DNA of 64,000 nt, taken from the NCBI RefSeq assembly GCF_044324875.1, contig NZ_CP172185.1. The stretch is one strand, 5' to 3'. Origin of the DNA: Escherichia coli (GTDB lineage Bacteria > Pseudomonadota > Gammaproteobacteria > Enterobacterales > Enterobacteriaceae). The position numbers and the translations under genes are program-made. The first letter of the stretch is position 1. Each line of letters begins with the position of its first letter. Below the pieces are notes generated by a model. It saw only the letters and a program-made list of their open reading frames with translations, made no database searches and was not told the origin of the DNA. Shown here one piece after another: positions 40,508 through 50,933 of this stretch.

Positions 40508-40699
40508 TTAAACATTTATAAGCGTTATAAATGGGTGGAACCTGTAAAGACTTCTACTCATTTATATTCTTTGTCGCCTCTGAAAAACCTCCATTTTGCC
40601 CATCCTGAACTAATCATTATCATTCTCTACAAATTTTATGGCGTTAATTTTTCGTTGGAGTGAAAATTATTGCGGTGAAATTTGGTAGATTTTAGTTTG

Positions 40700-40845
40700 A
40701 ATAGAGTTATTTCAAATATTTATCTTTTTAATCAATGGATTAAATGCTCTTTAACATAATGGATGTGTTGTTTGTGTGATACTGTAAAGTTGGTAGATTG
40801 TGACTGGCTTAAAAAATCATTAATTAATAATAGGTTATGTTTAGA
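40700..40845 (+). promoter_or_regulatory. AT-rich CRISPR leader (promoter and IHF region) immediately upstream of the first repeat
   Basis: Sequence ...TGGCTTAAAAAATCATTAATTAATAATAGGTTATGTTTAGA abuts repeat 1; matches my memory of the E. coli type I-E leader end. Confidence 0.6.
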
Positions 40846-41118
40846 GAGTTCCCCGCGCCAGCGGGGATAAACCGCTTCATCTGTCGGGCTAACTGGACAA
40901 AGAAACGAGTTCCCCGCGCCAGCGGGGATAAACCGTCGGTTTGACATCAAAGAAGCCATCAATCAGGGAGTTCCCCGCGCCAGCGGGGATAAACCGGTCT
41001 GGCCATAGGAACAAAGAAATTTGTCTTTGAGTTCCCCACGTCAGCGGGGATAAACCGGACACAGAGCGCCGCTATAGCGCCTATGCCAAGAGTTCCCCGC
41101 GCCAGCGGGGATAAACCA
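40846..41118 (+). CRISPR. Type I-E CRISPR array (CRISPR2.1 position): 5 repeats of 29 bp (GAGTTCCCCGCGCCAGCGGGGATAAACCG) and 4 spacers of 32 bp each
   Basis: Repeats at 40846, 40907, 40968, 41029 (variant CCCCACGTCAG) and 41090 (terminal, ...AAACCA); spacers at 40875-40906, 40936-40967, 40997-41028 and 41058-41089; regular 61-bp periodicity. Confidence 0.95.
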
Positions 41119-41755: not shown

Positions 41756-43234
41756 TTACGCATTCGACCAGCTCTGGATCGAATCTTCATTCCCCAGCTC
41801 ACCATGCATCACTTCATACGATTTTTTCAGGATCACATCAGTGTGTTTGGTTAGGTCTTTGAAAATGCCTTTATTCATCGCGTTGTAGCGTTTGGCGTTG
41901 CTCTCAACAGGCATAAAGATATCTTTCACGCGAACCATTTTGTCGACAGCCGTTGCGTAATCCGGGTATAGCCCCAGACCTACCGCCGTATTAATCGCTG
42001 CCCCCAGGCTTGCACAACCATTAATGGCGTTACGGCGTGCCGGAAGGTTGAACACGTCGGCAAAAATCTGCATAAACAGATCGCTGTTCGAACCGCCGCC
42101 AGTAATGATCACATGCTTTGCAAAGTGATTCATTTCATTACACATATTGTCGTAATTGTTCTTCAGCGTCAGCGCCACGCTTTCCAGTATCGAACGATAT
42201 ATCCATGCGTAATCCATGCTGGAATCAAAGCCAATCATAATCCCGCGTTTGTACGGTTCCCACGGATTGGTCAGCCAGTCCAGCACCGTCATCAGACCAT
42301 TACAGCCTGGCGGCACACAAGAAGCTTTTTTGTTGAGTAAATCTTCCGGTGAAAGATCCTGCGCCCTGGCATCCTGAATTAACGACTCGCCTAGCATGTC
42401 GCGCAGCCAGCTCACCGTCCACATGCCTTTGCGAATACCGTAACCTTCATACAGCAAGGTTTGCGGAATAGAAGACATAATCGGCCAGTACGCTACCGGA
42501 TCTTTCGGCAGTACTTTGCCGTTCATCATCAACGCGATGTAAGTGCCAAGAGAAATTACCGCAGTTTCATCATCCAGTAACCCGGCTCCCAGTGCTTCTA
42601 CCGGTTTATCACTGGTGGTACAAACAACCGGCAGCCCAGCCGGGAAATGTGTCGCCAGCGCGGCTTGAGGAGTGATATGCCCAAGAACAGTGCCCGGCAT
42701 TTGCACATCAAACAGCATATGACGGGGGATATTAAACTTCTCCATGACTGCGGCATCTTCACTCCATGCCCAGGTCTTATAATCCACCGGCCACTGACCA
42801 AAATAGTTGGCGATATTGTCTTTAAACTCGCCGGTTAAGCGATGCGTCAGATAACCCGAAAAAGAGGTGACATATGCCACGTCAGGATTCGTATGTTCGT
42901 AAGGGCGTGTAACGCGTGCATCCTGCCAGCTAATCAACGGCGCAGCTGGCGTGCCATCGGCTTTCAATAACGCACGGCAGCAACGGATGGATCCCAGACC
43001 AATACCGACAATATCTTCTTTATTTCCGGCAAACTGACTCATCAAATCGTGACCGGCAAAGCATAATGATGCCCATAAATCGTCGTCAGGATGTTCTGCG
43101 GTATCGGCATCTGGCGTGTGCATCGGCTGCAATAAGCCTTTGCCTTCGCAAACCACATTACCTTCCAGATCGTACATCACCACTTTTGTGCTCTGACTTC
43201 CACCATCAATCCCTATGATGTATTTTTTCGACAT
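41756..43234 (-). CDS. ygcE: FGGY-family carbohydrate kinase
   Basis: 492 aa; FGGY N-terminus IGIDGGSQSTKVV. Confidence 0.9.
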   Translation of the reverse strand: MSKKYIIGIDGGSQSTKVVMYDLEGNVVCEGKGLLQPMHTPDADTAEHPDDDLWASLCFAGHDLMSQFAGNKEDIVGIGLGSIRCCRALLKADGTPAAPLISWQDARVTRPYEHTNPDVAYVTSFSGYLTHRLTGEFKDNIANYFGQWPVDYKTWAWSEDAAVMEKFNIPRHMLFDVQMPGTVLGHITPQAALATHFPAGLPVVCTTSDKPVEALGAGLLDDETAVISLGTYIALMMNGKVLPKDPVAYWPIMSSIPQTLLYEGYGIRKGMWTVSWLRDMLGESLIQDARAQDLSPEDLLNKKASCVPPGCNGLMTVLDWLTNPWEPYKRGIMIGFDSSMDYAWIYRSILESVALTLKNNYDNMCNEMNHFAKHVIITGGGSNSDLFMQIFADVFNLPARRNAINGCASLGAAINTAVGLGLYPDYATAVDKMVRVKDIFMPVESNAKRYNAMNKGIFKDLTKHTDVILKKSYEVMHGELGNEDSIQSWSNA

Positions 43235-43260
43235 GATTTTTCTCCTGTAATTTTCTGGAC

Positions 43261-44538
43261 TTACTTGCTGCTAGCCATAGCAGGGGCGCTATCAGCAGTA
43301 CGAATTTTTTGGAACAGCAAAAAGGTAAAGACGATCACCATGGCAAGCGCCGCCATGCCCATCAGCCACATATTGCGGTAGGCTTCTGCAGCGGGCAGGG
43401 TGTCTTGCCAGTAGCCGATAATCGGGTAAACGAAGACATCCGGCAGGAATCCAATCACCGAACAAATACCTACCGTGGTGCCCATAATGTAAGACGGTGT
43501 TCTCGCTTCGCCAGGGCAGGCCCAGTACAGCCCGCGTGAGGCGTAACAGGTGAATCCCAGCAGTAAAATCAGGCCAATCCCCATCGCGACCGATTGCGGG
43601 TTAGAGTTCGTGACGAGCAGGGCAGTTAACGCCAGCAAGCCGAGTACGGAAAGGATTTGGATCACGCGGGTAGGGGATTTCACTTTGCTGTAGGTGGTGA
43701 TAATGCCACCAAGTGGGCCGCACAGTGCGCGGAAGATTTTGTTGATCACAATCCCCATGTAGCTCGCCGCCACCAGCGACATGCCGTACATTTCGGTCAG
43801 ATAGTTGGTGGAGTAACTCAGAATGGCGTAGATGGTGAAGACACCAAAAATCACCATGCTGCAATACCAGGTGGTGCTGATGCGCAAAACAGCCAGGATG
43901 TCGCTAAGCTGGAATGACTGTTTTTCTTCGTTATTGGTATTGCACAGGTTGTTGTTATCGCTAACAAAAAACCAACACAAAATGCCCAGCAGAATGTAAA
44001 CCACACTATAGATAATAATGACCGTTTTCAGGCTGGCGCTGTCATCCGGTGCAAAGCGAGAAAAGACCCACATGGTAAACACCGCCAGCGACATTACACC
44101 GACGCCGCGCAGCCCTTCCATCCAGCCCATAATTTTCCCTTGCTCGCTATGATCGCCCAGCAACGAGGCGGCTTTAATCGACACCGACCACAGCATTAAA
44201 ATAGTGGTTATCGCAAAGGCGACCTGAATACAGAGCATTACCCACAGCGGTGGATATGTTGCCATTAACAGACCCAGTAATCCGGTAATGATCATCGCGG
44301 AAGTAATCATTTTGCGGTGTGAAAATTTATCGGCAATAACGCCGCTGGGGGCATAAAGAATAATAGCCGCAATACCAAAGGTACTCATTATTAAACCTAT
44401 CTCGGTATTGCTGAATCCCATAAATTTCGCCATGGGAATTTGATAAATATAACGTAAATAAGCCAGGTCGAAACTAACGCCGCCGCTAAAACTAATTATC
44501 GCGAGGGTTATCCAACGGCGATATGAGTTGTGTTGCAT
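43261..44538 (-). CDS. yqcE: MFS transporter
   Basis: 425 aa, 12 TM helices; upstream of ygcE in the same orientation. Confidence 0.9.
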   Translation of the reverse strand: MQHNSYRRWITLAIISFSGGVSFDLAYLRYIYQIPMAKFMGFSNTEIGLIMSTFGIAAIILYAPSGVIADKFSHRKMITSAMIITGLLGLLMATYPPLWVMLCIQVAFAITTILMLWSVSIKAASLLGDHSEQGKIMGWMEGLRGVGVMSLAVFTMWVFSRFAPDDSASLKTVIIIYSVVYILLGILCWFFVSDNNNLCNTNNEEKQSFQLSDILAVLRISTTWYCSMVIFGVFTIYAILSYSTNYLTEMYGMSLVAASYMGIVINKIFRALCGPLGGIITTYSKVKSPTRVIQILSVLGLLALTALLVTNSNPQSVAMGIGLILLLGFTCYASRGLYWACPGEARTPSYIMGTTVGICSVIGFLPDVFVYPIIGYWQDTLPAAEAYRNMWLMGMAALAMVIVFTFLLFQKIRTADSAPAMASSK

Positions 44539-44562
44539 ATCGTATTCCCATTTGTAATAGAC

Positions 44563-44610
44563 AAAAAAAAGAGAAAAGTAAGCCGCCCTTTCAGGTGGAT
44601 TACTTTTCTC
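44563..44610 (-). terminator. Leader intrinsic terminator about 25 nt upstream of the yqcE start codon (minus strand: GAGAAAAGUAA-18 nt loop-UUACUUUUCUC + U8)
   Basis: Perfect 11-bp stem followed by 8 U on the minus strand, inside the 5' leader of yqcE-ygcE. Confidence 0.6.
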
Positions 44611-44659
44611 AGGTCTCTAGTAATTGCAATAAGAAATAACATGGAAAGCAGTGGTGTTG

Positions 44660-44675
44660 TGTGAGAGTAATCACG
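44660..44675. promoter_or_regulatory. CRP-like site TGTGAGAGTAATCACG, positioned about -41.5 relative to the inferred minus-strand yqcE promoter
   Basis: TGTGA-N6-TCACG (9/10 half-site match). Confidence 0.45.
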
Positions 44676-44716
44676 CTTCTGCTTTTTAAAATTATTTGAC
44701 AATTCGAATATCACAC

Positions 44717-44732
44717 TGTGATTACGATCACA
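44717..44732. promoter_or_regulatory. CRP consensus site TGTGATTACGATCACA, about -41.5 relative to the inferred ygcW promoter (extended -10 TGATAAAAT at 44751-44759)
   Basis: Perfect TGTGA-N6-TCACA. Confidence 0.55.
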
Positions 44733-44786
44733 TTAGCGATTATGCCCTTATGATAAAAATTATCTCCAGTTACCAGAGATAATGAG

Positions 44787-44832
44787 AAAGGTAACTTCCC
44801 TCTCGCGGGGGAAGTTACCTTTCTTTTTTTTT
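44787..44832 (+). terminator. Strong leader intrinsic terminator 25 nt upstream of the ygcW start codon (AAAGGTAACTTCCC-loop-GGGAAGTTACCTTT + CTTTTTTTTT)
   Basis: Perfect 14-bp stem plus a 9-T run, between the predicted promoter and the ygcW SD/ATG (44847/44857). Confidence 0.75.
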
Positions 44833-44856
44833 GCCTTACGGAAATTGGAGCTAACT

Positions 44857-45642
44857 ATGTCAATCGAATCTCTCAATGCGTTCTCAATGGATTTTTTCTC
44901 CCTGAAAGGCAAAACCGCAATTGTTACCGGCGGGAATAGCGGTTTAGGCCAGGCATTTGCCATGGCGCTGGCCAAAGCAGGCGCAAATATCTTTATTCCA
45001 AGCTTCGTTAAAGATAACGGCGAAACAAAGGAAATGATTGAAAAACAGGGTGTTGAGGTGGACTTCATGCAGGTGGATATCACCGCAGAAGGCGCGCCGC
45101 AGAAGATAATCGCCGCCTGTTGCGAACGTTTCGGTACCGTCGATATTCTGATTAACAATGCCGGTATTTGTAAGCTGAATAAGGTGCTGGACTTCGGTCG
45201 TGCCGACTGGGACCCGATGATTGATGTGAACCTGACCGCCGCATTCGAGTTAAGCTATGAAGCTGCAAAAATTATGATCCCGCAGAAAAGCGGTAAAATC
45301 ATTAATATCTGTTCATTATTCTCTTACTTAGGTGGACAATGGTCACCTGCATATTCTGCCACTAAACATGCTCTTGCCGGATTCACCAAAGCTTATTGTG
45401 ATGAACTAGGTCAATATAATATTCAGGTAAATGGTATTGCCCCTGGCTATTATGCAACAGATATTACGCTGGCGACACGCAGTAATCCAGAAACTAATCA
45501 GCGCGTTCTTGATCATATTCCGGCAAACCGTTGGGGCGATACTCAGGATTTAATGGGCGCAGCCGTATTCCTCGCAAGTCCGGCTTCAAATTATGTTAAC
45601 GGGCATTTATTAGTGGTCGATGGCGGTTATTTAGTGCGCTAA
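44857..45642 (+). CDS. ygcW: Short-chain dehydrogenase/reductase (KduD/2-deoxy-D-gluconate 3-dehydrogenase-like)
   Basis: 261 aa from ATG 44857 (SD ggag); Rossmann motif TGGNSGLG; ORF track extends to 44782 across the terminator, which is implausible. Confidence 0.85.
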   Translation: MSIESLNAFSMDFFSLKGKTAIVTGGNSGLGQAFAMALAKAGANIFIPSFVKDNGETKEMIEKQGVEVDFMQVDITAEGAPQKIIAACCERFGTVDILINNAGICKLNKVLDFGRADWDPMIDVNLTAAFELSYEAAKIMIPQKSGKIINICSLFSYLGGQWSPAYSATKHALAGFTKAYCDELGQYNIQVNGIAPGYYATDITLATRSNPETNQRVLDHIPANRWGDTQDLMGAAVFLASPASNYVNGHLLVVDGGYLVR

Positions 45643-45711
45643 TCCATAACGGTGGTTTCTGTTTTCTCTTATTAATGATTATTCCATTTTTATTATCAGG
45701 AAGGAATTACT

Positions 45712-47166
45712 ATGTCTTTATCTCGCGCAGCGATTGTCGACCAGCTAAAGAAAATTGTTGGTGCAGATCGCGTAATTACCGATGAAACAGTATTAAAGAA
45801 GAACAGTATTGACCGTTTTCGCAAATTTCCGGATATTCATGGCATTTATACTTTGCCGATTCCGGCAGCGGTCGTAAAACTCGGTTCCACAGAACAAGTA
45901 TCCCGTGTGCTGAATTTTATGAATGCGCACAAAATTAACGGTGTGCCGCGTACCGGTGCTTCCGCTACCGAAGGTGGGCTGGAAACCGTTGTGGAAAACT
46001 CGGTGGTGCTCGACGGCTCTGCCATGAATCAAATCATTAATATTGATATTGAGAATATGCAGGCCACGGCGCAATGCGGAGTTCCGCTGGAAGTGCTGGA
46101 AAACGCGTTGCGTGAAAAAGGTTACACCACGGGGCATTCTCCGCAGTCAAAGCCGCTGGCGCAGATGGGCGGCCTGGTAGCAACCCGCAGTATCGGGCAG
46201 TTCTCCACACTCTACGGCGCAATCGAAGATATGGTCGTTGGTCTGGAAGCAGTATTGGCTGATGGCACCGTAACACGCATTAAAAACGTACCACGCCGCG
46301 CGGCAGGCCCGGACATTCGTCACATCATCATCGGCAACGAAGGTGCATTGTGCTATATCACTGAAGTAACAGTGAAAATCTTTAAGTTCACCCCGGAAAA
46401 CAACCTCTTCTACGGCTATATCCTGGAAGACATGAAAACCGGCTTCAACATCCTACGTGAAATCATGGTGGAAGGGTATCGTCCGTCGATCGCTCGTTTG
46501 TATGACGCTGAAGATGGCACCCAACACTTCACCCATTTTGCCGACGGAAAATGCGTGCTGATCTTTATGGCTGAAGGTAACCCTCGCATTGCGAAGGCGA
46601 CGGGCGAAGGGATTGCTGAAATCGTGGCACGTTACCCGCAATGCCAGCGAGTGGACAGCAAGCTGATCGAAACCTGGTTTAACAACCTGAACTGGGGACC
46701 GGATAAAGTAGCTGCCGAACGTGTGCAGATCCTCAAAACCGGCAACATGGGCTTTACCACCGAAGTGTCCGGCTGCTGGAGCTGCATTCACGAAATCTAC
46801 GAAAGCGTTATTAACCGTATTCGTACCGAGTTCCCGCACGCCGACGACATCACCATGCTGGGCGGTCACTCCTCTCATAGCTATCAGAACGGCACCAACA
46901 TGTACTTCGTCTACGACTACAACGTCGTTGACTGTAAGCCGGAAGAGGAAATCGACAAGTACCACAATCCGCTCAACAAAATCATCTGCGAAGAAACCAT
47001 TCGCCTCGGTGGTTCGATGGTGCACCACCACGGTATCGGTAAACATCGCGTTCACTGGAGCAAACTGGAACACGGCAGCGCGTGGGCGTTGCTGGAAGGG
47101 CTGAAAAAGCAGTTCGATCCTAACGGCATTATGAATACGGGTACTATCTATCCGATTGAAAAATAA
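45712..47166 (+). CDS. ygcU: FAD-linked oxidase (GlcD / alkyl-DHAP synthase-like)
   Basis: 484 aa; FAD-binding PCMH domain plus C-terminal oxidase domain. Confidence 0.9.
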   Translation: MSLSRAAIVDQLKKIVGADRVITDETVLKKNSIDRFRKFPDIHGIYTLPIPAAVVKLGSTEQVSRVLNFMNAHKINGVPRTGASATEGGLETVVENSVVLDGSAMNQIINIDIENMQATAQCGVPLEVLENALREKGYTTGHSPQSKPLAQMGGLVATRSIGQFSTLYGAIEDMVVGLEAVLADGTVTRIKNVPRRAAGPDIRHIIIGNEGALCYITEVTVKIFKFTPENNLFYGYILEDMKTGFNILREIMVEGYRPSIARLYDAEDGTQHFTHFADGKCVLIFMAEGNPRIAKATGEGIAEIVARYPQCQRVDSKLIETWFNNLNWGPDKVAAERVQILKTGNMGFTTEVSGCWSCIHEIYESVINRIRTEFPHADDITMLGGHSSHSYQNGTNMYFVYDYNVVDCKPEEEIDKYHNPLNKIICEETIRLGGSMVHHHGIGKHRVHWSKLEHGSAWALLEGLKKQFDPNGIMNTGTIYPIEK

Positions 47167-47259
47167 TGTGTCAGGCAGCGTTCCGCGATGACGGAGCGTT
47201 GCCTTTTCGGCTTCTCAGGCGAGAAGCCGTTCTTATTACCGGACAATGAAGGGGTAAAG

Positions 47260-48597
47260 ATGAACACTTCACCGGTGCGAATGGATGATTTACCGCTTAA
47301 CCGTTTTCACTGTCGAATTGCTGCGCTCACTTTCGGCGCACACCTGACCGACGGTTATGTTCTAGGCGTCATTGGTTACGCCATTATTCAGCTTACGCCC
47401 GCCATGCAACTGACGCCGTTTATGGCGGGTATGATCGGCGGCTCGGCGCTCCTTGGTTTGTTTCTTGGCAGCCTGGTTCTTGGGTGGATCTCCGACCATA
47501 TTGGTCGGCAAAAAATCTTCACCTTCAGCTTTTTGCTGATTACGCTCGCTTCGTTCTTGCAATTTTTTGCCACCACGCCAGAGCATCTTATTGGATTGCG
47601 CATTTTGATCGGCATTGGTCTGGGAGGCGATTACTCAGTCGGTCACACCTTGCTGGCTGAATTTTCCCCGCGCCGCCATCGCGGTATTTTGCTGGGCGCA
47701 TTCAGTGTGGTGTGGACCGTAGGCTATGTGCTGGCAAGTATTGCCGGACATCACTTTATTACCGAAAGCCCGGAGGCCTGGCGCTGGCTGCTGGCATCAG
47801 CGGCGTTACCAGCCTTGCTGATTACGCTGCTACGTTGGGGCACGCCGGAATCGCCACGCTGGCTACTGCGCCAGGGGCGTTTTGCTGAAGCTCACGCTAT
47901 CGTGCATCGCTACTTTGGTCCCCATGTTTTACTGGGCGATGAAGTGGCAACGGCGACCCATAAACACATCAAAACATTGTTCTCTTCGCGCTACTGGCGG
48001 CGCACAGCGTTTAACAGCGTCTTCTTTGTCTGCCTCGTAATCCCATGGTTTGTGATTTATACCTGGCTGCCAACTATCGCCCAAACTATTGGTCTGGAAG
48101 ATGCGCTGACAGCCAGCCTGATGCTTAATGCGTTGTTAATTGTGGGCGCGCTGCTGGGATTAGTTCTGACGCACCTGCTGGCACATCGCAAATTTTTGCT
48201 GGGAAGTTTTTTGCTGCTGGCGGCAACGCTGGTCGTGATGGCCTGTTTGCCTTCCGGCAGTTCATTAACGCTGCTGCTTTTTGTTCTCTTCAGCACCACC
48301 ATTTCGGCAGTCAGTAATCTGGTGGGCATTTTGCCTGCGGAAAGTTTTCCTACTGACATTCGCTCGCTGGGCGTCGGTTTTGCCACCGCCATGAGTCGGT
48401 TGGGCGCGGCAGTAAGTACGGGCCTGCTGCCGTGGGTGCTGGCGCAGTGGGGAATGCAAGTCACCTTATTGCTCCTGGCGGCAGTGTTGTTGGTTGGTTT
48501 TGTCGTGACCTGGCTATGGGCACCAGAAACCAAAGCACTCCCGCTGGTGGCGGCGGGAAATGTAGGAGGTGCGAATGAACATTCTGTTAGCGTTTAA
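47260..48597 (+). CDS. ygcS: MFS sugar/metabolite transporter
   Basis: 445 aa from ATG 47260 (SD aagggg); ORF track start 47188 is likely over-extended. Confidence 0.85.
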   Translation: MNTSPVRMDDLPLNRFHCRIAALTFGAHLTDGYVLGVIGYAIIQLTPAMQLTPFMAGMIGGSALLGLFLGSLVLGWISDHIGRQKIFTFSFLLITLASFLQFFATTPEHLIGLRILIGIGLGGDYSVGHTLLAEFSPRRHRGILLGAFSVVWTVGYVLASIAGHHFITESPEAWRWLLASAALPALLITLLRWGTPESPRWLLRQGRFAEAHAIVHRYFGPHVLLGDEVATATHKHIKTLFSSRYWRRTAFNSVFFVCLVIPWFVIYTWLPTIAQTIGLEDALTASLMLNALLIVGALLGLVLTHLLAHRKFLLGSFLLLAATLVVMACLPSGSSLTLLLFVLFSTTISAVSNLVGILPAESFPTDIRSLGVGFATAMSRLGAAVSTGLLPWVLAQWGMQVTLLLLAAVLLVGFVVTWLWAPETKALPLVAAGNVGGANEHSVSV

Positions 48598-49354
48598 AGC
48601 CGAACCGGATGTCGGAATGCTGGCGGAAAAAGAGTGGCAGGCGGCGGCTCAGGGTAATAGCGGACCGGATGTTTCGCTTCTGCGAAGTTTACTCGGTGCT
48701 GATGAACAGGCTGCCGCCGCGCTGCTGTTGGCGCAGAGAAAAAACGGTACGTCGATGTCTTTAACCGCGTTGAGCATGGGGGATGAACGGGCGTTGCACT
48801 GGCTGCGCTATCTCATGGCTCTTGGGTTTGAGGAAGCTGTATTGCTGGAGACGGTGGCAGATCTGCGCTTTGCGCCGGAATTTGTCGCTCGCCATATTGC
48901 CGAATGGCAGCGTCAGAATCCGCTGGATCTGATAATTACCGGCTGCCAAAGCAGCGAAGGGCAGAATGGGCAAACGCCATTTTTGCTGGCGGAAATGCTG
49001 GGCTGGCCCTGCTTCACCCAGGTGGAGCGTTTTACTCTCGACGCGCCGTTTATCACCCTTGAACAGCGTACTGAAAACGGGCTGCGCTGTTGCCGGGTTC
49101 GCTTGCCTGCGGTGATTGCCGTGCGTCAGTGCGGTGAAGTGGCCTTGCCAGTACCGGGAATGCGTCAGCGAATGGCGGCGGGGAAAGCAGCAATTATCCG
49201 TAAAACTGTTGCTGCCGAATTGCCAGCGATGCTGTGTCTGCAACTGGCAAGAGCAGAGCAACAACGCGGAGCGACGCTGATTGATGGGCAAACGGTAGCA
49301 GAAAAAGCGCAAAAGCTATGGCAGGACTATTTACGCCAAAGGATGCAGCCATGA
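48575..49354 (+). CDS. ygcR: Electron transfer flavoprotein beta-subunit-like (FixA-like)
   Basis: 259 aa from ATG 48575 with SD aggagg; overlaps the ygcS end. Confidence 0.85.
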   Translation: MNILLAFKAEPDVGMLAEKEWQAAAQGNSGPDVSLLRSLLGADEQAAAALLLAQRKNGTSMSLTALSMGDERALHWLRYLMALGFEEAVLLETVADLRFAPEFVARHIAEWQRQNPLDLIITGCQSSEGQNGQTPFLLAEMLGWPCFTQVERFTLDAPFITLEQRTENGLRCCRVRLPAVIAVRQCGEVALPVPGMRQRMAAGKAAIIRKTVAAELPAMLCLQLARAEQQRGATLIDGQTVAEKAQKLWQDYLRQRMQP

Positions 49355-50211
49355 ATATCGCAATTGTGACAATAAATCAGGAGAATGCCGCAATAGCGAG
49401 CTGGCAGGCGGCGCAGGATTTCAGCGGTTGTACCCTGGCGCACTGGAAGATTGAACCTCAGCCCGCTGTGGCGGAACAGGTGCTGGATGCGCTGGTGGAA
49501 CAGTGGCAGCGAACGCCTGCGGACGTTGTTCTCTTTCCGCCGGGAACGTTTGGCGATGAACTGTCGACCCGGCTGGCCTGGCGTTTACATGGTGCAAGCA
49601 TCTGCCAGGTGACTTCGTTAGATATTCCAACCGTAAGCGTGCGCAAATCCCACTGGGGAAATGCGCTAACGGCGACGCTGCAAACAGAAAAACGCCCGCT
49701 ATGCCTTTCCCTGGCGCGTCAGGCGGGAGCAGCGAAAAACGCCACGTTGCCCTCTGGTATGCAGCAACTGAACATTGTCCCAGGTGCGCTTCCCGACTGG
49801 CTGGTTAGCATAGAGAATCTGAAAAATGTTAGCCGCGACCCATTAGCTGAAGCCAGACGGGTGCTGGTGGTGGGGCAGGGCGGAGAGGCAGATAACCAGG
49901 AAATCGCTATGCTGGCAGAAAAGCTGGGAGCCGAAGTGGGCTACAGTCGGGCACGAGTGATGAACGGTGGCGTTGATGCCGAAAAAGTGATTGGTATTTC
50001 TGGACATCTGCTGGCACCTGAGGTGTGTATTGTTGTTGGCGCTTCCGGCGCAGCAGCGTTAATGGCGGGCGTACGCAATAGCAAGTTTGTGGTGGCGATT
50101 AATCATGACGCCAGCGCGGCGGTATTTTCACAGGCAGATGTTGGCGTGGTTGATGACTGGAAAGCGGTGCTGGAGGCTCTGGTGACAAACATTCACGCAG
50201 ATTGCCAATAA
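49351..50211 (+). CDS. ygcQ: Electron transfer flavoprotein alpha-subunit-like (FixB-like)
   Basis: 286 aa; ATGA overlap with the ygcR stop. Confidence 0.85.
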   Translation: MNIAIVTINQENAAIASWQAAQDFSGCTLAHWKIEPQPAVAEQVLDALVEQWQRTPADVVLFPPGTFGDELSTRLAWRLHGASICQVTSLDIPTVSVRKSHWGNALTATLQTEKRPLCLSLARQAGAAKNATLPSGMQQLNIVPGALPDWLVSIENLKNVSRDPLAEARRVLVVGQGGEADNQEIAMLAEKLGAEVGYSRARVMNGGVDAEKVIGISGHLLAPEVCIVVGASGAAALMAGVRNSKFVVAINHDASAAVFSQADVGVVDDWKAVLEALVTNIHADCQ

Positions 50212-50357: not shown

Positions 50358-50933
50358 TCAAAGCAATTTTTTCGCTAACGTCCAGACCCCGGTATTCGTG
50401 GTGGAAAGCGCCACAACACCCGCGTTAATCGCATTACGCGCATCTTCTTCATCGCACACCAGCCCGCCGGCAATCAGCGGTTGGCGGATTTTCTCCGTCA
50501 CCCAGCCTAGCACTTTAGGCATACAGCCTGGCAGGATCTCAATACAATCCGGATTCGATTGCGCAACTTGCTTATCAATGTTGTGAAACGAAATCGAATC
50601 AACAATAAACAGGCGATGAATACAGAAAAAACCTTCCGCTCTTGCCGCTTTTAGCATCGATGCTTTCGTGCTGATAATGCCGTCCGCCTCGGTCACCAGT
50701 TTCAGAAACTGAATCACCACTTCTTTGTTCGATGCGCCTTCCAGCAAATCAACATGAATAAAGGCATATTTTCCGGCGTTTTTAATCTTTTTAACGATAT
50801 TACTGATGGTGCAGATATTGCCGTACAACACGGAAATAAACTGGCATTCAGAGTCGATTGCCAGTTGCAGGCTGGCATTATCTTTAACGGCAGCAATCAC
50901 CGGATTCTGGCGGAGCAGGTGTAAGAGGGGCAT
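50358..50933 (-). CDS. ygcP: GlpP-family (glycerol-3-phosphate-responsive antiterminator-like, PF04309) putative RNA-binding antiterminator
   Basis: 191 aa; shares B. subtilis GlpP hallmark blocks (HVDLLEG, GIISTK, HRLFIVDS, PDCIEILPG, GGLV...A...GVVALSTTN). Confidence 0.85.
   Translation of the reverse strand: MPLLHLLRQNPVIAAVKDNASLQLAIDSECQFISVLYGNICTISNIVKKIKNAGKYAFIHVDLLEGASNKEVVIQFLKLVTEADGIISTKASMLKAARAEGFFCIHRLFIVDSISFHNIDKQVAQSNPDCIEILPGCMPKVLGWVTEKIRQPLIAGGLVCDEEDARNAINAGVVALSTTNTGVWTLAKKLL

Follow-up and report, generated by a model that had tools for sequence, protein, structure and literature searches.

The ygc locus of Escherichia coli was analysed in a stretch of 64,000 nucleotides (contig NZ_CP172185.1, called the window below and numbered from its first letter), in which a spacer of 318 bp lies between the divergent operons that begin with yqcE and ygcW. 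We consider it likely that this spacer holds a YgcP-dependent antitermination switch of the GlpP type, placed under class II CRP promoters. More cautiously, we lean towards seeing in the ygc leader a class of protein-operated RNA switch that has so far gone uncatalogued, spans phyla and is cognate to a distinct subfamily of PF04309 (YgcP); its code would be GAG-N4-6-GAGAAA in tandem in the loop of a weak hairpin. An earlier note, made from the sequence alone, had put forward the region as a candidate target of YgcP; all predictions of its model that could be tested computationally held, and its two errors, concerning a palindrome and a hairpin, leave the model intact.

In the proposed mechanism, two divergent class II CRP-type promoters would each give rise to a leader of about 65 nt with a strong intrinsic terminator, and by default transcription would stop about 25 nt before the start codon. 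RUUACY in the leader would pair with RGUAAY of the terminator 5' arm, forming a weak hairpin of 6-7 bp whose loop of 14-18 nt shows GAG and GAGAAA. Once it carries an intermediate of the pathway, YgcP would bind hairpin and loop and hold the terminator 5' arm, so that the terminator could not form; by analogy with glycerol 3-phosphate (G3P) and GlpK in Bacillus, this intermediate is probably what the FGGY kinase YgcE produces. RNA polymerase would then read into yqcE-ygcE and ygcW-ygcU-ygcS-ygcR-ygcQ, and cAMP-CRP would act as catabolite control at initiation.

Two competing folds in the ygc leaders

The element is about 65 nt long and consists, in order, of RTTACY, GAG, 4-6 nt, GAGAAARGTAAY, a variable upper stem, the 3' arm and a U-run. 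Both leaders carry it, and the predicted features are as follows, with scores from the covariance model R1 that is described below.

44765-44832, plus strand: ygcW leader element, antiterminator/terminator switch, R1 75.5 bits
44563-44628, minus strand: yqcE leader element, antiterminator/terminator switch, R1 67 bits
44784-44832, plus strand: ygcW leader intrinsic terminator, stem of 16-19 bp, UCGC loop, U9
44563-44610, minus strand: yqcE leader intrinsic terminator, lower stem of 11 bp, inner stem, U8
44768-44796, plus strand: ygcW antiterminator hairpin, AGUUACC (44768-44774) with GGUAACU (44790-44796); in the loop, GAG at 44776-44778 and GAGAAA at 44784-44789
44599-44624, minus strand: yqcE antiterminator hairpin, AUUACU (44624-44619) with AGUAAU (44604-44599); in the loop, GAG at 44617-44615 and GAGAAA at 44610-44605

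Direct reading of the sequence confirmed the coordinates that had been given for the terminators, the CRP-type sites and the shared leader motif. A perfect stem of 16 bp (19 bp with G-U pairs) joins 44785-44800 to 44809-44824 on the plus strand, and T9 occupies 44824-44832; hairpin and T9 were as described before, whereas the stem had been put at 14 bp. On the minus strand, GAGAAAAGUAA (44610-44600) pairs with UUACUUUUCUC (44581-44571), with the inner stem between them and U8 at 44570-44563. The folding z-scores were -6.6 and -6.7 for the plus leader, and -4.6 and -4.8 for the minus leader. Both U-runs end 24 nt 5' of the start codons, and the full leaders fold as terminators at -31.2 kcal/mol (ygcW) and -20.7 kcal/mol (yqcE).

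The motifs of the two E. coli leaders are identical at 20 of 26 aligned positions. With at most one mismatch allowed, their core TGAGAAARGTAA is found at four places in the window (0.39 expected), three of them in this region. The spacer as a whole had been described as a near-perfect palindrome, which was not borne out: it is 63.5% identical to its own reverse complement when gaps are allowed, and 35% without gaps compared with 27% for shuffles. The two-fold symmetry of the spacer is one of architecture and spacing, not of near-perfect sequence.

The upstream RTTACY is complementary to RGTAAY in the terminator 5' arm, and this complementarity was assessed across species. The model R1 was built from 33 diverse leaders with the terminator structure only, and then used to collect and align 93 leaders, so that the alignment was not fitted to the antiterminator helix. 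The terminator was 88.9% paired in this alignment, with compensatory changes at 12 of 19 pairs, chiefly in the variable upper stem. For the antiterminator helix, standard pairs were found in 94.3% of cells, compared with 16-54% when the 3' partner was slid by 1-3 columns. Compensatory changes on both sides were found at five of the seven antiterminator pairs, and the observed covariation score was reached by none of 500 shuffles. The earlier note had the motif overlapping the 5' arm of the terminator; it does so, and it forms a covarying alternative helix there. The exchanges were distributed as follows.

G-C to A-U, first TTAC-flanking pair: 25 sequences, comprising Escherichia-clade yqcE leaders, Sporomusa and Anaeromicrobium; also in Vallitalea, outside the 93-sequence alignment
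U-A to C-G, pair after TTAC: 22 sequences, ygcW leaders of the Escherichia clade
A-U to G-C, compensated three ways through the terminator 3' arm: Apirhabdus and Fodinisporobacter; also in Listeria grandensis, outside the alignment
U-A to C-G: one Anaeromicrobium leader

At two antiterminator pairs all departures were U-G and none was C-A, indicating that the pairing takes place in RNA, on the sense strand. Alignment column 36 was paired in the antiterminator in 90 of the 93 leaders and unpaired in the terminator in 59 of them, indicating that this base is held by the antiterminator and not by the terminator. When the terminator 3' arm was left out, the E. coli leaders folded to exactly the antiterminator hairpin, at -6.7 kcal/mol for ygcW and -1.4 kcal/mol for yqcE. 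An antiterminator this weak, set against such strong terminators, points to termination as the default and to the need for a stabilising factor in trans.

The antiterminator loop measured 14-15 nt in 77 of the 93 leaders and 18 nt in 13. In its GAG, the first G was present in all 93 leaders, the A in 91 and the second G again in all 93, and GAGAAA was nearly invariant. Since the first GAG belongs to no helix, it is conserved as sequence, as contact with a protein would require.

An upstream hairpin at 44761-44782, described in the earlier note, was considered as the functional alternative to the terminator. The hairpin exists (approximately 44759-44783); however, its 5' half is unconserved in other species and lies largely 5' of the predicted transcription start, and the conserved helix of 44768-44774 with 44790-44796 replaces it in this role.

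Other kinds of element were considered as well. Attenuation by a leader peptide was rejected, given that the AUG in the motif is shared by only about half of the leaders aligned and lacks a Shine-Dalgarno sequence. In the E. coli plus leader, an ATG at 44782 within the conserved motif (AUGAGAAAGG) is in frame with ygcW and heads a mechanically called open reading frame of 286 aa (44782-45642). No known riboswitch or leader family reached its gathering score in a permissive E-value scan of 44000-45400 with Rfam 15, and the best matches were at chance level (SurA, 22.8 bits against a gathering score of 100; PyrG_leader, 20.8 against 65). A dispersed palindromic repeat, of the repetitive extragenic palindromic (REP), enterobacterial repetitive intergenic consensus (ERIC) or miniature inverted-repeat transposable element (MITE) kind, was also rejected, as the yqcE leader is found at one place per E. 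coli genome and R1 has two matches in 64 kb.

Transcript 3' ends in vivo and the putative promoters

Published Term-seq data were used to find out where transcripts of the two leaders end. The data come from supplementary files 1 and 3 of Adams et al. (PMC7815308) and were obtained from strain MG1655 in LB at an optical density of 0.4, and coordinates were converted as K-12 coordinate = 2945130 minus window coordinate. Two 3' ends were found (PMC7815308).

K-12 2900311, minus strand (window 44819): 40,640 reads, 38 nt 5' of ygcW, Rho score 0.50 (not Rho), intrinsic score 15.8
K-12 2900556, plus strand (window 44574): 1,557 reads, 36 nt 5' of yqcE, Rho score 0.61 (not Rho), intrinsic score 11.4

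The sequences that accompany these entries are those of the two leaders, and no other rows were found when the Term-seq 3'-end sequences were searched for the motif cores. In line with the premature termination that the earlier note had predicted, both leaders have premature, Rho-independent 3' ends on record in vivo (PMC7815308). The paper classes both ends as 'orphan' and does not discuss them in its text (PMC7815308).

Upstream of each leader lie a CRP site and a putative extended -10 element.

44660-44675 (centre 44667.5): CRP site of the yqcE promoter, TGTGAGAGTAATCACG, about -41.5 from the predicted start at ~44626
44717-44732 (centre 44724.5): CRP site of the ygcW promoter, TGTGATTACGATCACA, about -41.5 from the predicted start at ~44766
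44751-44759, plus strand: putative extended -10 of the ygcW promoter, TG-a-TAAAAA, from the conserved (Y)RTGnTAAAAAT before ygcW leaders
44633-44641, minus strand: putative extended -10 of the yqcE promoter, TG-t-TATTTC, from the conserved CATGnTATTT before yqcE leaders

In nearly all Enterobacterales, a site matching the CRP consensus at 9-10 of 10 positions precedes each leader, with its centre 43.5-45.5 nt 5' of RTTAC; on the yqcE side the distance is 43.5 nt (42.5-44.5) in most of them, and on the ygcW side it is 44.5 nt. A good -35 is absent at both putative promoters and an extended -10 is present. The conserved extended -10 would place the transcription starts about 2-3 nt before the motif, at ~44766 on the plus strand and ~44626 on the minus strand, with CRP at -41.5, a spacing that the earlier note had proposed and that these starts fit. 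Several Firmicute loci have a TTGACA-17-TATACT promoter that sets the start 1-8 nt before RTTAC, for example ...TATACTGTGAACTAATATAAGTTACTAGAGCCGAGAGAAAAGTAAC... in Thalassobacillus, and the enterobacterial starts predicted here agree with the start position implied by those promoters.

Binding of CRP at the spacer is already known. Footprint-seq gave an estimated dissociation constant of 1.7 nM (PMC12871828), chromatin immunoprecipitation sequencing in enterotoxigenic E. coli detected CRP at TGTGATTACGATCACA (PMC4287617), and the yqcE/ygcW spacer was named as a CRP target by PhyloScan prediction and by genomic SELEX (systematic evolution of ligands by exponential enrichment). The consensus CRP site about 41.5 bp 5' of the predicted start, the extended -10 and the measured CRP binding resemble class II CRP-dependent promoters. 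The ygc arrangement differs from these in that two such promoters stand back to back, with CRP site centres 57 bp apart, and in that its starts are predicted ones.

An alternative ygcW promoter, TTGACA-16-TGTGAT, has been computed from RNA polymerase SELEX data and listed as a predicted constitutive sigma-70 promoter, and H-NS was noted for the spacer in the same work (PMC3946193). A perfect TTGACA is indeed present in the middle of the spacer (~44696-44722, plus strand), 16 nt 5' of the TGTGAT that forms the left half of the ygcW-side CRP site. If this promoter is active, CRP would occlude it; as an alternative start for ygcW it would only lengthen the leader.

Distribution of the element and its linkage to ygcP

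The genes of the window that bear on the switch were taken from the RefSeq record, and the gene order was checked with Pfam.

41756-43234, minus strand: ygcE (FGGY kinase)
43261-44538, minus strand: yqcE (MFS transporter), start codon at 44538
44857-45642, plus strand: ygcW (SDR), start codon at 44857
50358-50933, minus strand: ygcP, candidate antiterminator gene, by its PF04309 match
41756-44538, minus strand: proposed regulated operon yqcE-ygcE, from gene order and Pfam
44857-50211, plus strand: proposed regulated operon ygcW (SDR), ygcU (FAD oxidase), ygcS (MFS), ygcR and ygcQ (subunits of an electron transfer flavoprotein, ETF)

The extents of the two operons are those that gene spacing suggests. 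In E. coli, ygcP forms a separate convergent transcription unit, and ygcO and ygcN, which follow it in the gene order, are also on the minus strand. The ygcW/yqcE region is widespread in the species: a query of 801 bp matched 5069 of 5426 complete E. coli genomes, in which the flanking genes are annotated as an SDR oxidoreductase and an MFS transporter.

The homology of YgcP to GlpP, proposed earlier, is supported by a match to PF04309 (G3P_antiterm) with E = 1.4e-62, and its closest solved relative is PDB 3KTS, the GlpP of Listeria monocytogenes (E = 1e-27). The genome of Listeria grandensis encodes a canonical GlpP alongside a YgcP-type protein. E. coli YgcP shares 56% identity with this YgcP-type protein, compared with 28% for the canonical GlpP. 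YgcP-type proteins and GlpP are two subfamilies with probably separate targets. The YgcP-type paralogue of L. grandensis (L081; P0129/P0131) has its own variant leader, GTTGCTAGAGAATTGAGATAAGCGAC, and the species lends itself to the question of how each subfamily is kept to its own targets.

Loci with YgcP were collected by a scan with one genome per species, which gave 80 loci. Searches by tblastn with ten cluster proteins revealed that ygcP travels with the divergent yqcE-ygcE and ygcW-ygcU in at least three gene orders, namely the Escherichia type, the Serratia/Pantoea type, in which ygcP adjoins ygcE, and others in L. grandensis and Vallitalea. Among the Enterobacterales, both leaders keep the element in 67 of the 68 loci with an intact spacer, in the form [C/A]RTTACY; 1 or 4 nt; GAG; 4-6 nt; GAGAAARGTRAY; a variable upper stem; GYTTRCYTTTCTC; T7-9. 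The element also precedes ygcW- or yqcE-type genes in 10 ygcP-type loci of Vibrionaceae and Firmicutes, of which nine were fetched through YgcP homologues (54-62% identity) and one through the RNA pattern. All nine homologue-fetched loci have at least one copy (Vallitalea, L. grandensis, Thalassobacillus, Vibrio hannami, Clostridium sediminicola, Sporomusa, Fodinisporobacter, Photobacterium and Anaeromicrobium), those of Vallitalea and L. grandensis being weak R1 matches of 26.5 and 18.4 bits. Conservation of the motif, which the earlier note had predicted for orthologous ygc loci, thus extends to YgcP-type loci of other phyla, and only one of the diverse loci examined did not show ygcP together with the motif.

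In Thalassobacillus, V. hannami, C. sediminicola, Sporomusa, Fodinisporobacter, Photobacterium and Anaeromicrobium, the ygcP-type gene has genes for an SDR and an FAD oxidase as neighbours. Six of these seven loci also contain a gene for an FGGY kinase, and none lies within the stretch fetched from Photobacterium. BCCT or OpuA-type ABC transporters stand beside MFS transporters, or replace them, in the clusters of Thalassobacillus, V. hannami, Fodinisporobacter, Photobacterium and Anaeromicrobium; their occurrence with a constant SDR and FAD oxidase is a hint about the pathway substrate.

The specificity of the RNA motif was examined in several ways. With filters off, R1 found only the two leaders in the window; the next matches were the antisense faces of the same hairpins, followed by noise of at most 12 bits. 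Across 57 other loci every full-length match was at a leader position, and in no enterobacterial locus was there an R1 match upstream of ygcN-ygcO-ygcP, ygcS or ygcP. A BLAST search of E. coli genomes with the 66-nt yqcE leader returned this leader itself and not its sister leader, a search too insensitive to define a regulon. A scan that started from the RNA was made in metagenomes of the Joint Genome Institute (JGI) with the pattern GTTACTAGAG-N3-6-GAGAAAAGTAAC, in a form that excludes E. coli itself, and all six stretches found lie inside ygc-type loci. Four of them have ygcP in the DNA fetched, one is a contig of 1.3 kb that carries a divergent YgcP-like gene, and the sixth is too short to show whether ygcP is present.

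Several loci have been rearranged. In Shigella flexneri (L008:14620-17200) and E. coli ECMA0423 (L006), ygcW, yqcE, ygcE and part of ygcU are deleted and ygcP-ygcN remain, so that both regulated promoters are lost; in S. flexneri, two IS1 transposase genes are located at the deletion junction, which reaches ygcG. The spacer of Limnobaculum eriocheiris (L048:13856-13985) is 130 bp long and consists of a single hairpin, which on either strand reads as a terminator followed by a U-run; the two promoters and the two RTTAC segments are absent. It looks like the product of recombination between two inverted leaders. In Klebsiella spallanzanii (L017:16477-16626) and Citrobacter youngae (L018:16320-16469), the yqcE leader terminator and the start of yqcE are separated by about 127 bp of inserted DNA, downstream of the switch; we take this insertion (...GTAAGTGATTCGGGTGAGTGAACGCAGCCAACGCA...AAGTATGAAGGGTA) to resemble an ERIC/IRU (intergenic repeat unit) repeat. 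Beyond ygcE in the window, the matching RefSeq record annotates a CRISPR array at ~40661-41117, between queE and ygcE, and the Term-seq table has several strong 'orphan' 3' ends in the corresponding region (K-12 2904041-2904326).

Alternative explanations, related systems and significance

YgcP is by far the best candidate for the operator of the switch. Several points weigh against a switch operated by YgcP. As regards transcription, neither the Term-seq nor the Cappable-seq supplements yielded start sites for the leaders, and none came to light for the Rend-seq paper. Both Term-seq 3' ends fall within the 3' strand of the AU-rich lower stem, 5 nt (44819, plus strand) and 4 nt (44574, minus strand) before the U-runs, which is atypical for untrimmed intrinsic termination; other rows of the Term-seq table (sokX, ygcN) have their ends 6-7 nt past the stem. 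The leader ends could be those of leaders that were terminated and then trimmed, or the lower stem could be unpaired in vivo. As regards conservation, the covariation was scored on related sequences of a very conserved element, with few independent events per pair. The loci were mostly gathered through YgcP, so that the linkage is partly by construction, and the test that started from the RNA comprises six matches. In Serratia microhaemolytica, an orphan YgcP homologue (70% identity, L068:7431-8000) lies between metH and a flavodoxin gene, with neither ygc catabolic genes nor the leader motif within the 7-10 kb fetched on each side. Finally, as regards the relation to GlpP, the glp loci of Priestia and Paenibacillus gave no strong R1 match, the best being 17 bits for the Priestia glpD leader, and only glpD leaders fold to a comparable small hairpin, glpF leaders folding otherwise, so that the likeness is partial.

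Four other explanations were compared with a YgcP-dependent switch. Hfq-dependent small RNAs (sRNAs) typically carry a strong hairpin and a U-tail, and the 3' end of the ygcW leader is abundant in LB and classed as 'orphan'. The leaders might then be constitutive attenuators, or stand-alone sRNAs of about 55-65 nt, that act in trans or have a dampening effect and escape control by YgcP. This explanation, however, accounts neither for the covarying antiterminator helix and the invariant loop nor for the cross-phylum linkage to ygcP and the placement directly 5' of catabolic genes in changing orders, and we regard it as improbable. A role of the leader RNA in trans could coexist with the cis-acting switch.

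YgcP is a candidate binder of the RNA, and ygcP lies in a separate convergent unit in E. coli. The leaders might instead respond to another RNA-binding factor, such as a global regulator, or to pausing of RNA polymerase coupled to translation. But there is no conserved leader open reading frame, as the AUG of the motif is confined to about half of the sequences, and the motif travels with ygcP across phyla while the neighbours change (MFS, BCCT and OpuA-type transporters; ETF genes present or absent). We give another factor or pausing as low a probability as the preceding explanation.

Small aptamers exist, and an alternative antiterminator/terminator fold with a highly conserved loop would also suit a riboswitch, in which hairpin and loop bind a pathway metabolite directly and YgcP has some other role. 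An AU-rich helix of 6-7 bp with an unstructured, purine-rich loop of 14-18 nt and a stability of -1.4 to -6.7 kcal/mol nevertheless offers little from which to build a pocket. Moreover, a PF04309 gene accompanies the element at each of the diverse loci examined, the paralogous GlpP system depends on a protein, and the element matches nothing in Rfam. A riboswitch is therefore quite unlikely here. The inverted repeat RTTACY...RGTAAY near the promoters could also be viewed as a palindromic DNA operator, with a repressor acting as a roadblock just downstream of the start, which is very unlikely: the U-G departures would be C-A on the other strand and are the signature of RNA, the two leaders of one genome differ and each is internally complementary (GTTACC/GGTAAC and ATTACT/AGTAAT), the 3' half-site is the terminator 5' arm and takes part in three-way covariation (Apirhabdus, Listeria), and no DNA-binding regulator is encoded in the cluster according to RefSeq annotations and Pfam.

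The proposed YgcP-dependent switch has its closest counterpart in GlpP. In B. subtilis, G3P-bound GlpP disrupts a terminator in the 5' untranslated region and so activates glpD, glpFK and glpTQ (PMC9604022). The two systems share a PF04309 regulator, an intrinsic terminator in the 5' leader just 3' of the promoter, with a conserved purine-rich segment as its 5' strand, and a linked FGGY kinase as a plausible source of the inducer. The B. subtilis glpD leader (PMC9604022, Table S4) has a GGUC/GACC pair, analogous to RUUACY/RGUAAY, that flanks CUGAGAUGAGGAGA, and its GACC opens the 5' strand of a terminator of -40 kcal/mol. Priestia and Paenibacillus glp leaders share AGUUAAUA...GGAGAAnnGGAGAGNCCAC, and leaders of both subfamilies show two spaced purine blocks of the GAGA type (GAGA...GGAGAG in glp) at the foot of the terminator. 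We regard the likeness of glpD and ygc leaders as a strong analogy and a possible homology. The systems differ in the sequence of the RNA motif, R1 scoring glp leaders at no more than 17 bits; in their targets, which are non-glp in ygc (SDR, FGGY kinase, FAD oxidase with ETF, transporters); and in the arrangement of the Enterobacterales switch as a divergent twin under class II CRP promoters. R1 also had no strong match at the GlpP locus of L. monocytogenes, which has no adjacent glp genes. Gene content, together with the 28% identity to GlpP, suggests that the ligand of YgcP may be a phosphorylated compound other than G3P.

Two further groups of systems are comparable. In the BglG/SacY/LicT systems, a hairpin of about 30 nt near the 5' end, the ribonucleic antiterminator (RAT), overlaps the terminator 5' arm, and an RNA-binding protein under substrate control stabilises it. 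The ygc leaders follow the same logic as these RATs (E. coli bgl; B. subtilis sac and lic). They differ from them in the sequence and structure of the RAT and in the protein family, which there has CAT and PRD domains and is controlled by the phosphotransferase system; no gene for a CAT and PRD protein of the BglG/SacY type was found in the ygc cluster, in which six proteins including YgcP were scanned with Pfam and the rest carry non-regulator annotations in RefSeq. Among the repeat-binding proteins of Bacillus that act in attenuation and antitermination, TRAP reads spaced GAG/UAG triplets in a leader that competes with a terminator. HutP recognises spaced NAG triplets in such a leader (PMC2425495). 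The invariant GAG-N4-6-GAGAAA of ygc suggests a similar reading of repeats, although the protein folds are unrelated and ygc has only two repeats, which lie in a hairpin loop. Oligomeric binding by YgcP is speculation.

The literature searched contained nothing that links YgcP to these leaders and nothing on regulation of the ygc switch, and the switch, the RNA motif, its cross-phylum distribution and the link to YgcP are apparently undescribed. The switch would account for two of the 'orphan' 3' ends in published E. coli tables. If the ygc leader is indeed an uncatalogued class of RNA switch with this code, the leaders would provide the first defined RNA determinant for any GlpP-family protein, and E. 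coli would have a second protein-dependent catabolic antitermination system beside BglG. The switch would also point to a phosphorylated inducer of an uncharacterised pathway with transporter, SDR, kinase and FAD oxidase/ETF, and the terminated ygcW leader, which is abundant, might have an additional role as a small RNA. The motif, common to Proteobacteria and Firmicutes and not in Rfam, is a possible leader family for annotating PF04309 regulons, and may throw light on RNA recognition by GlpP-family proteins, a matter that is poorly defined even for the GlpP of B. subtilis. With the candidate RNA targets defined to the nucleotide, reporters would offer a route to the inducer and to the pathway substrate. 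For an uncharacterised cluster in the best-studied bacterium, the circuit would combine CRP at initiation with a YgcP-dependent switch at elongation.

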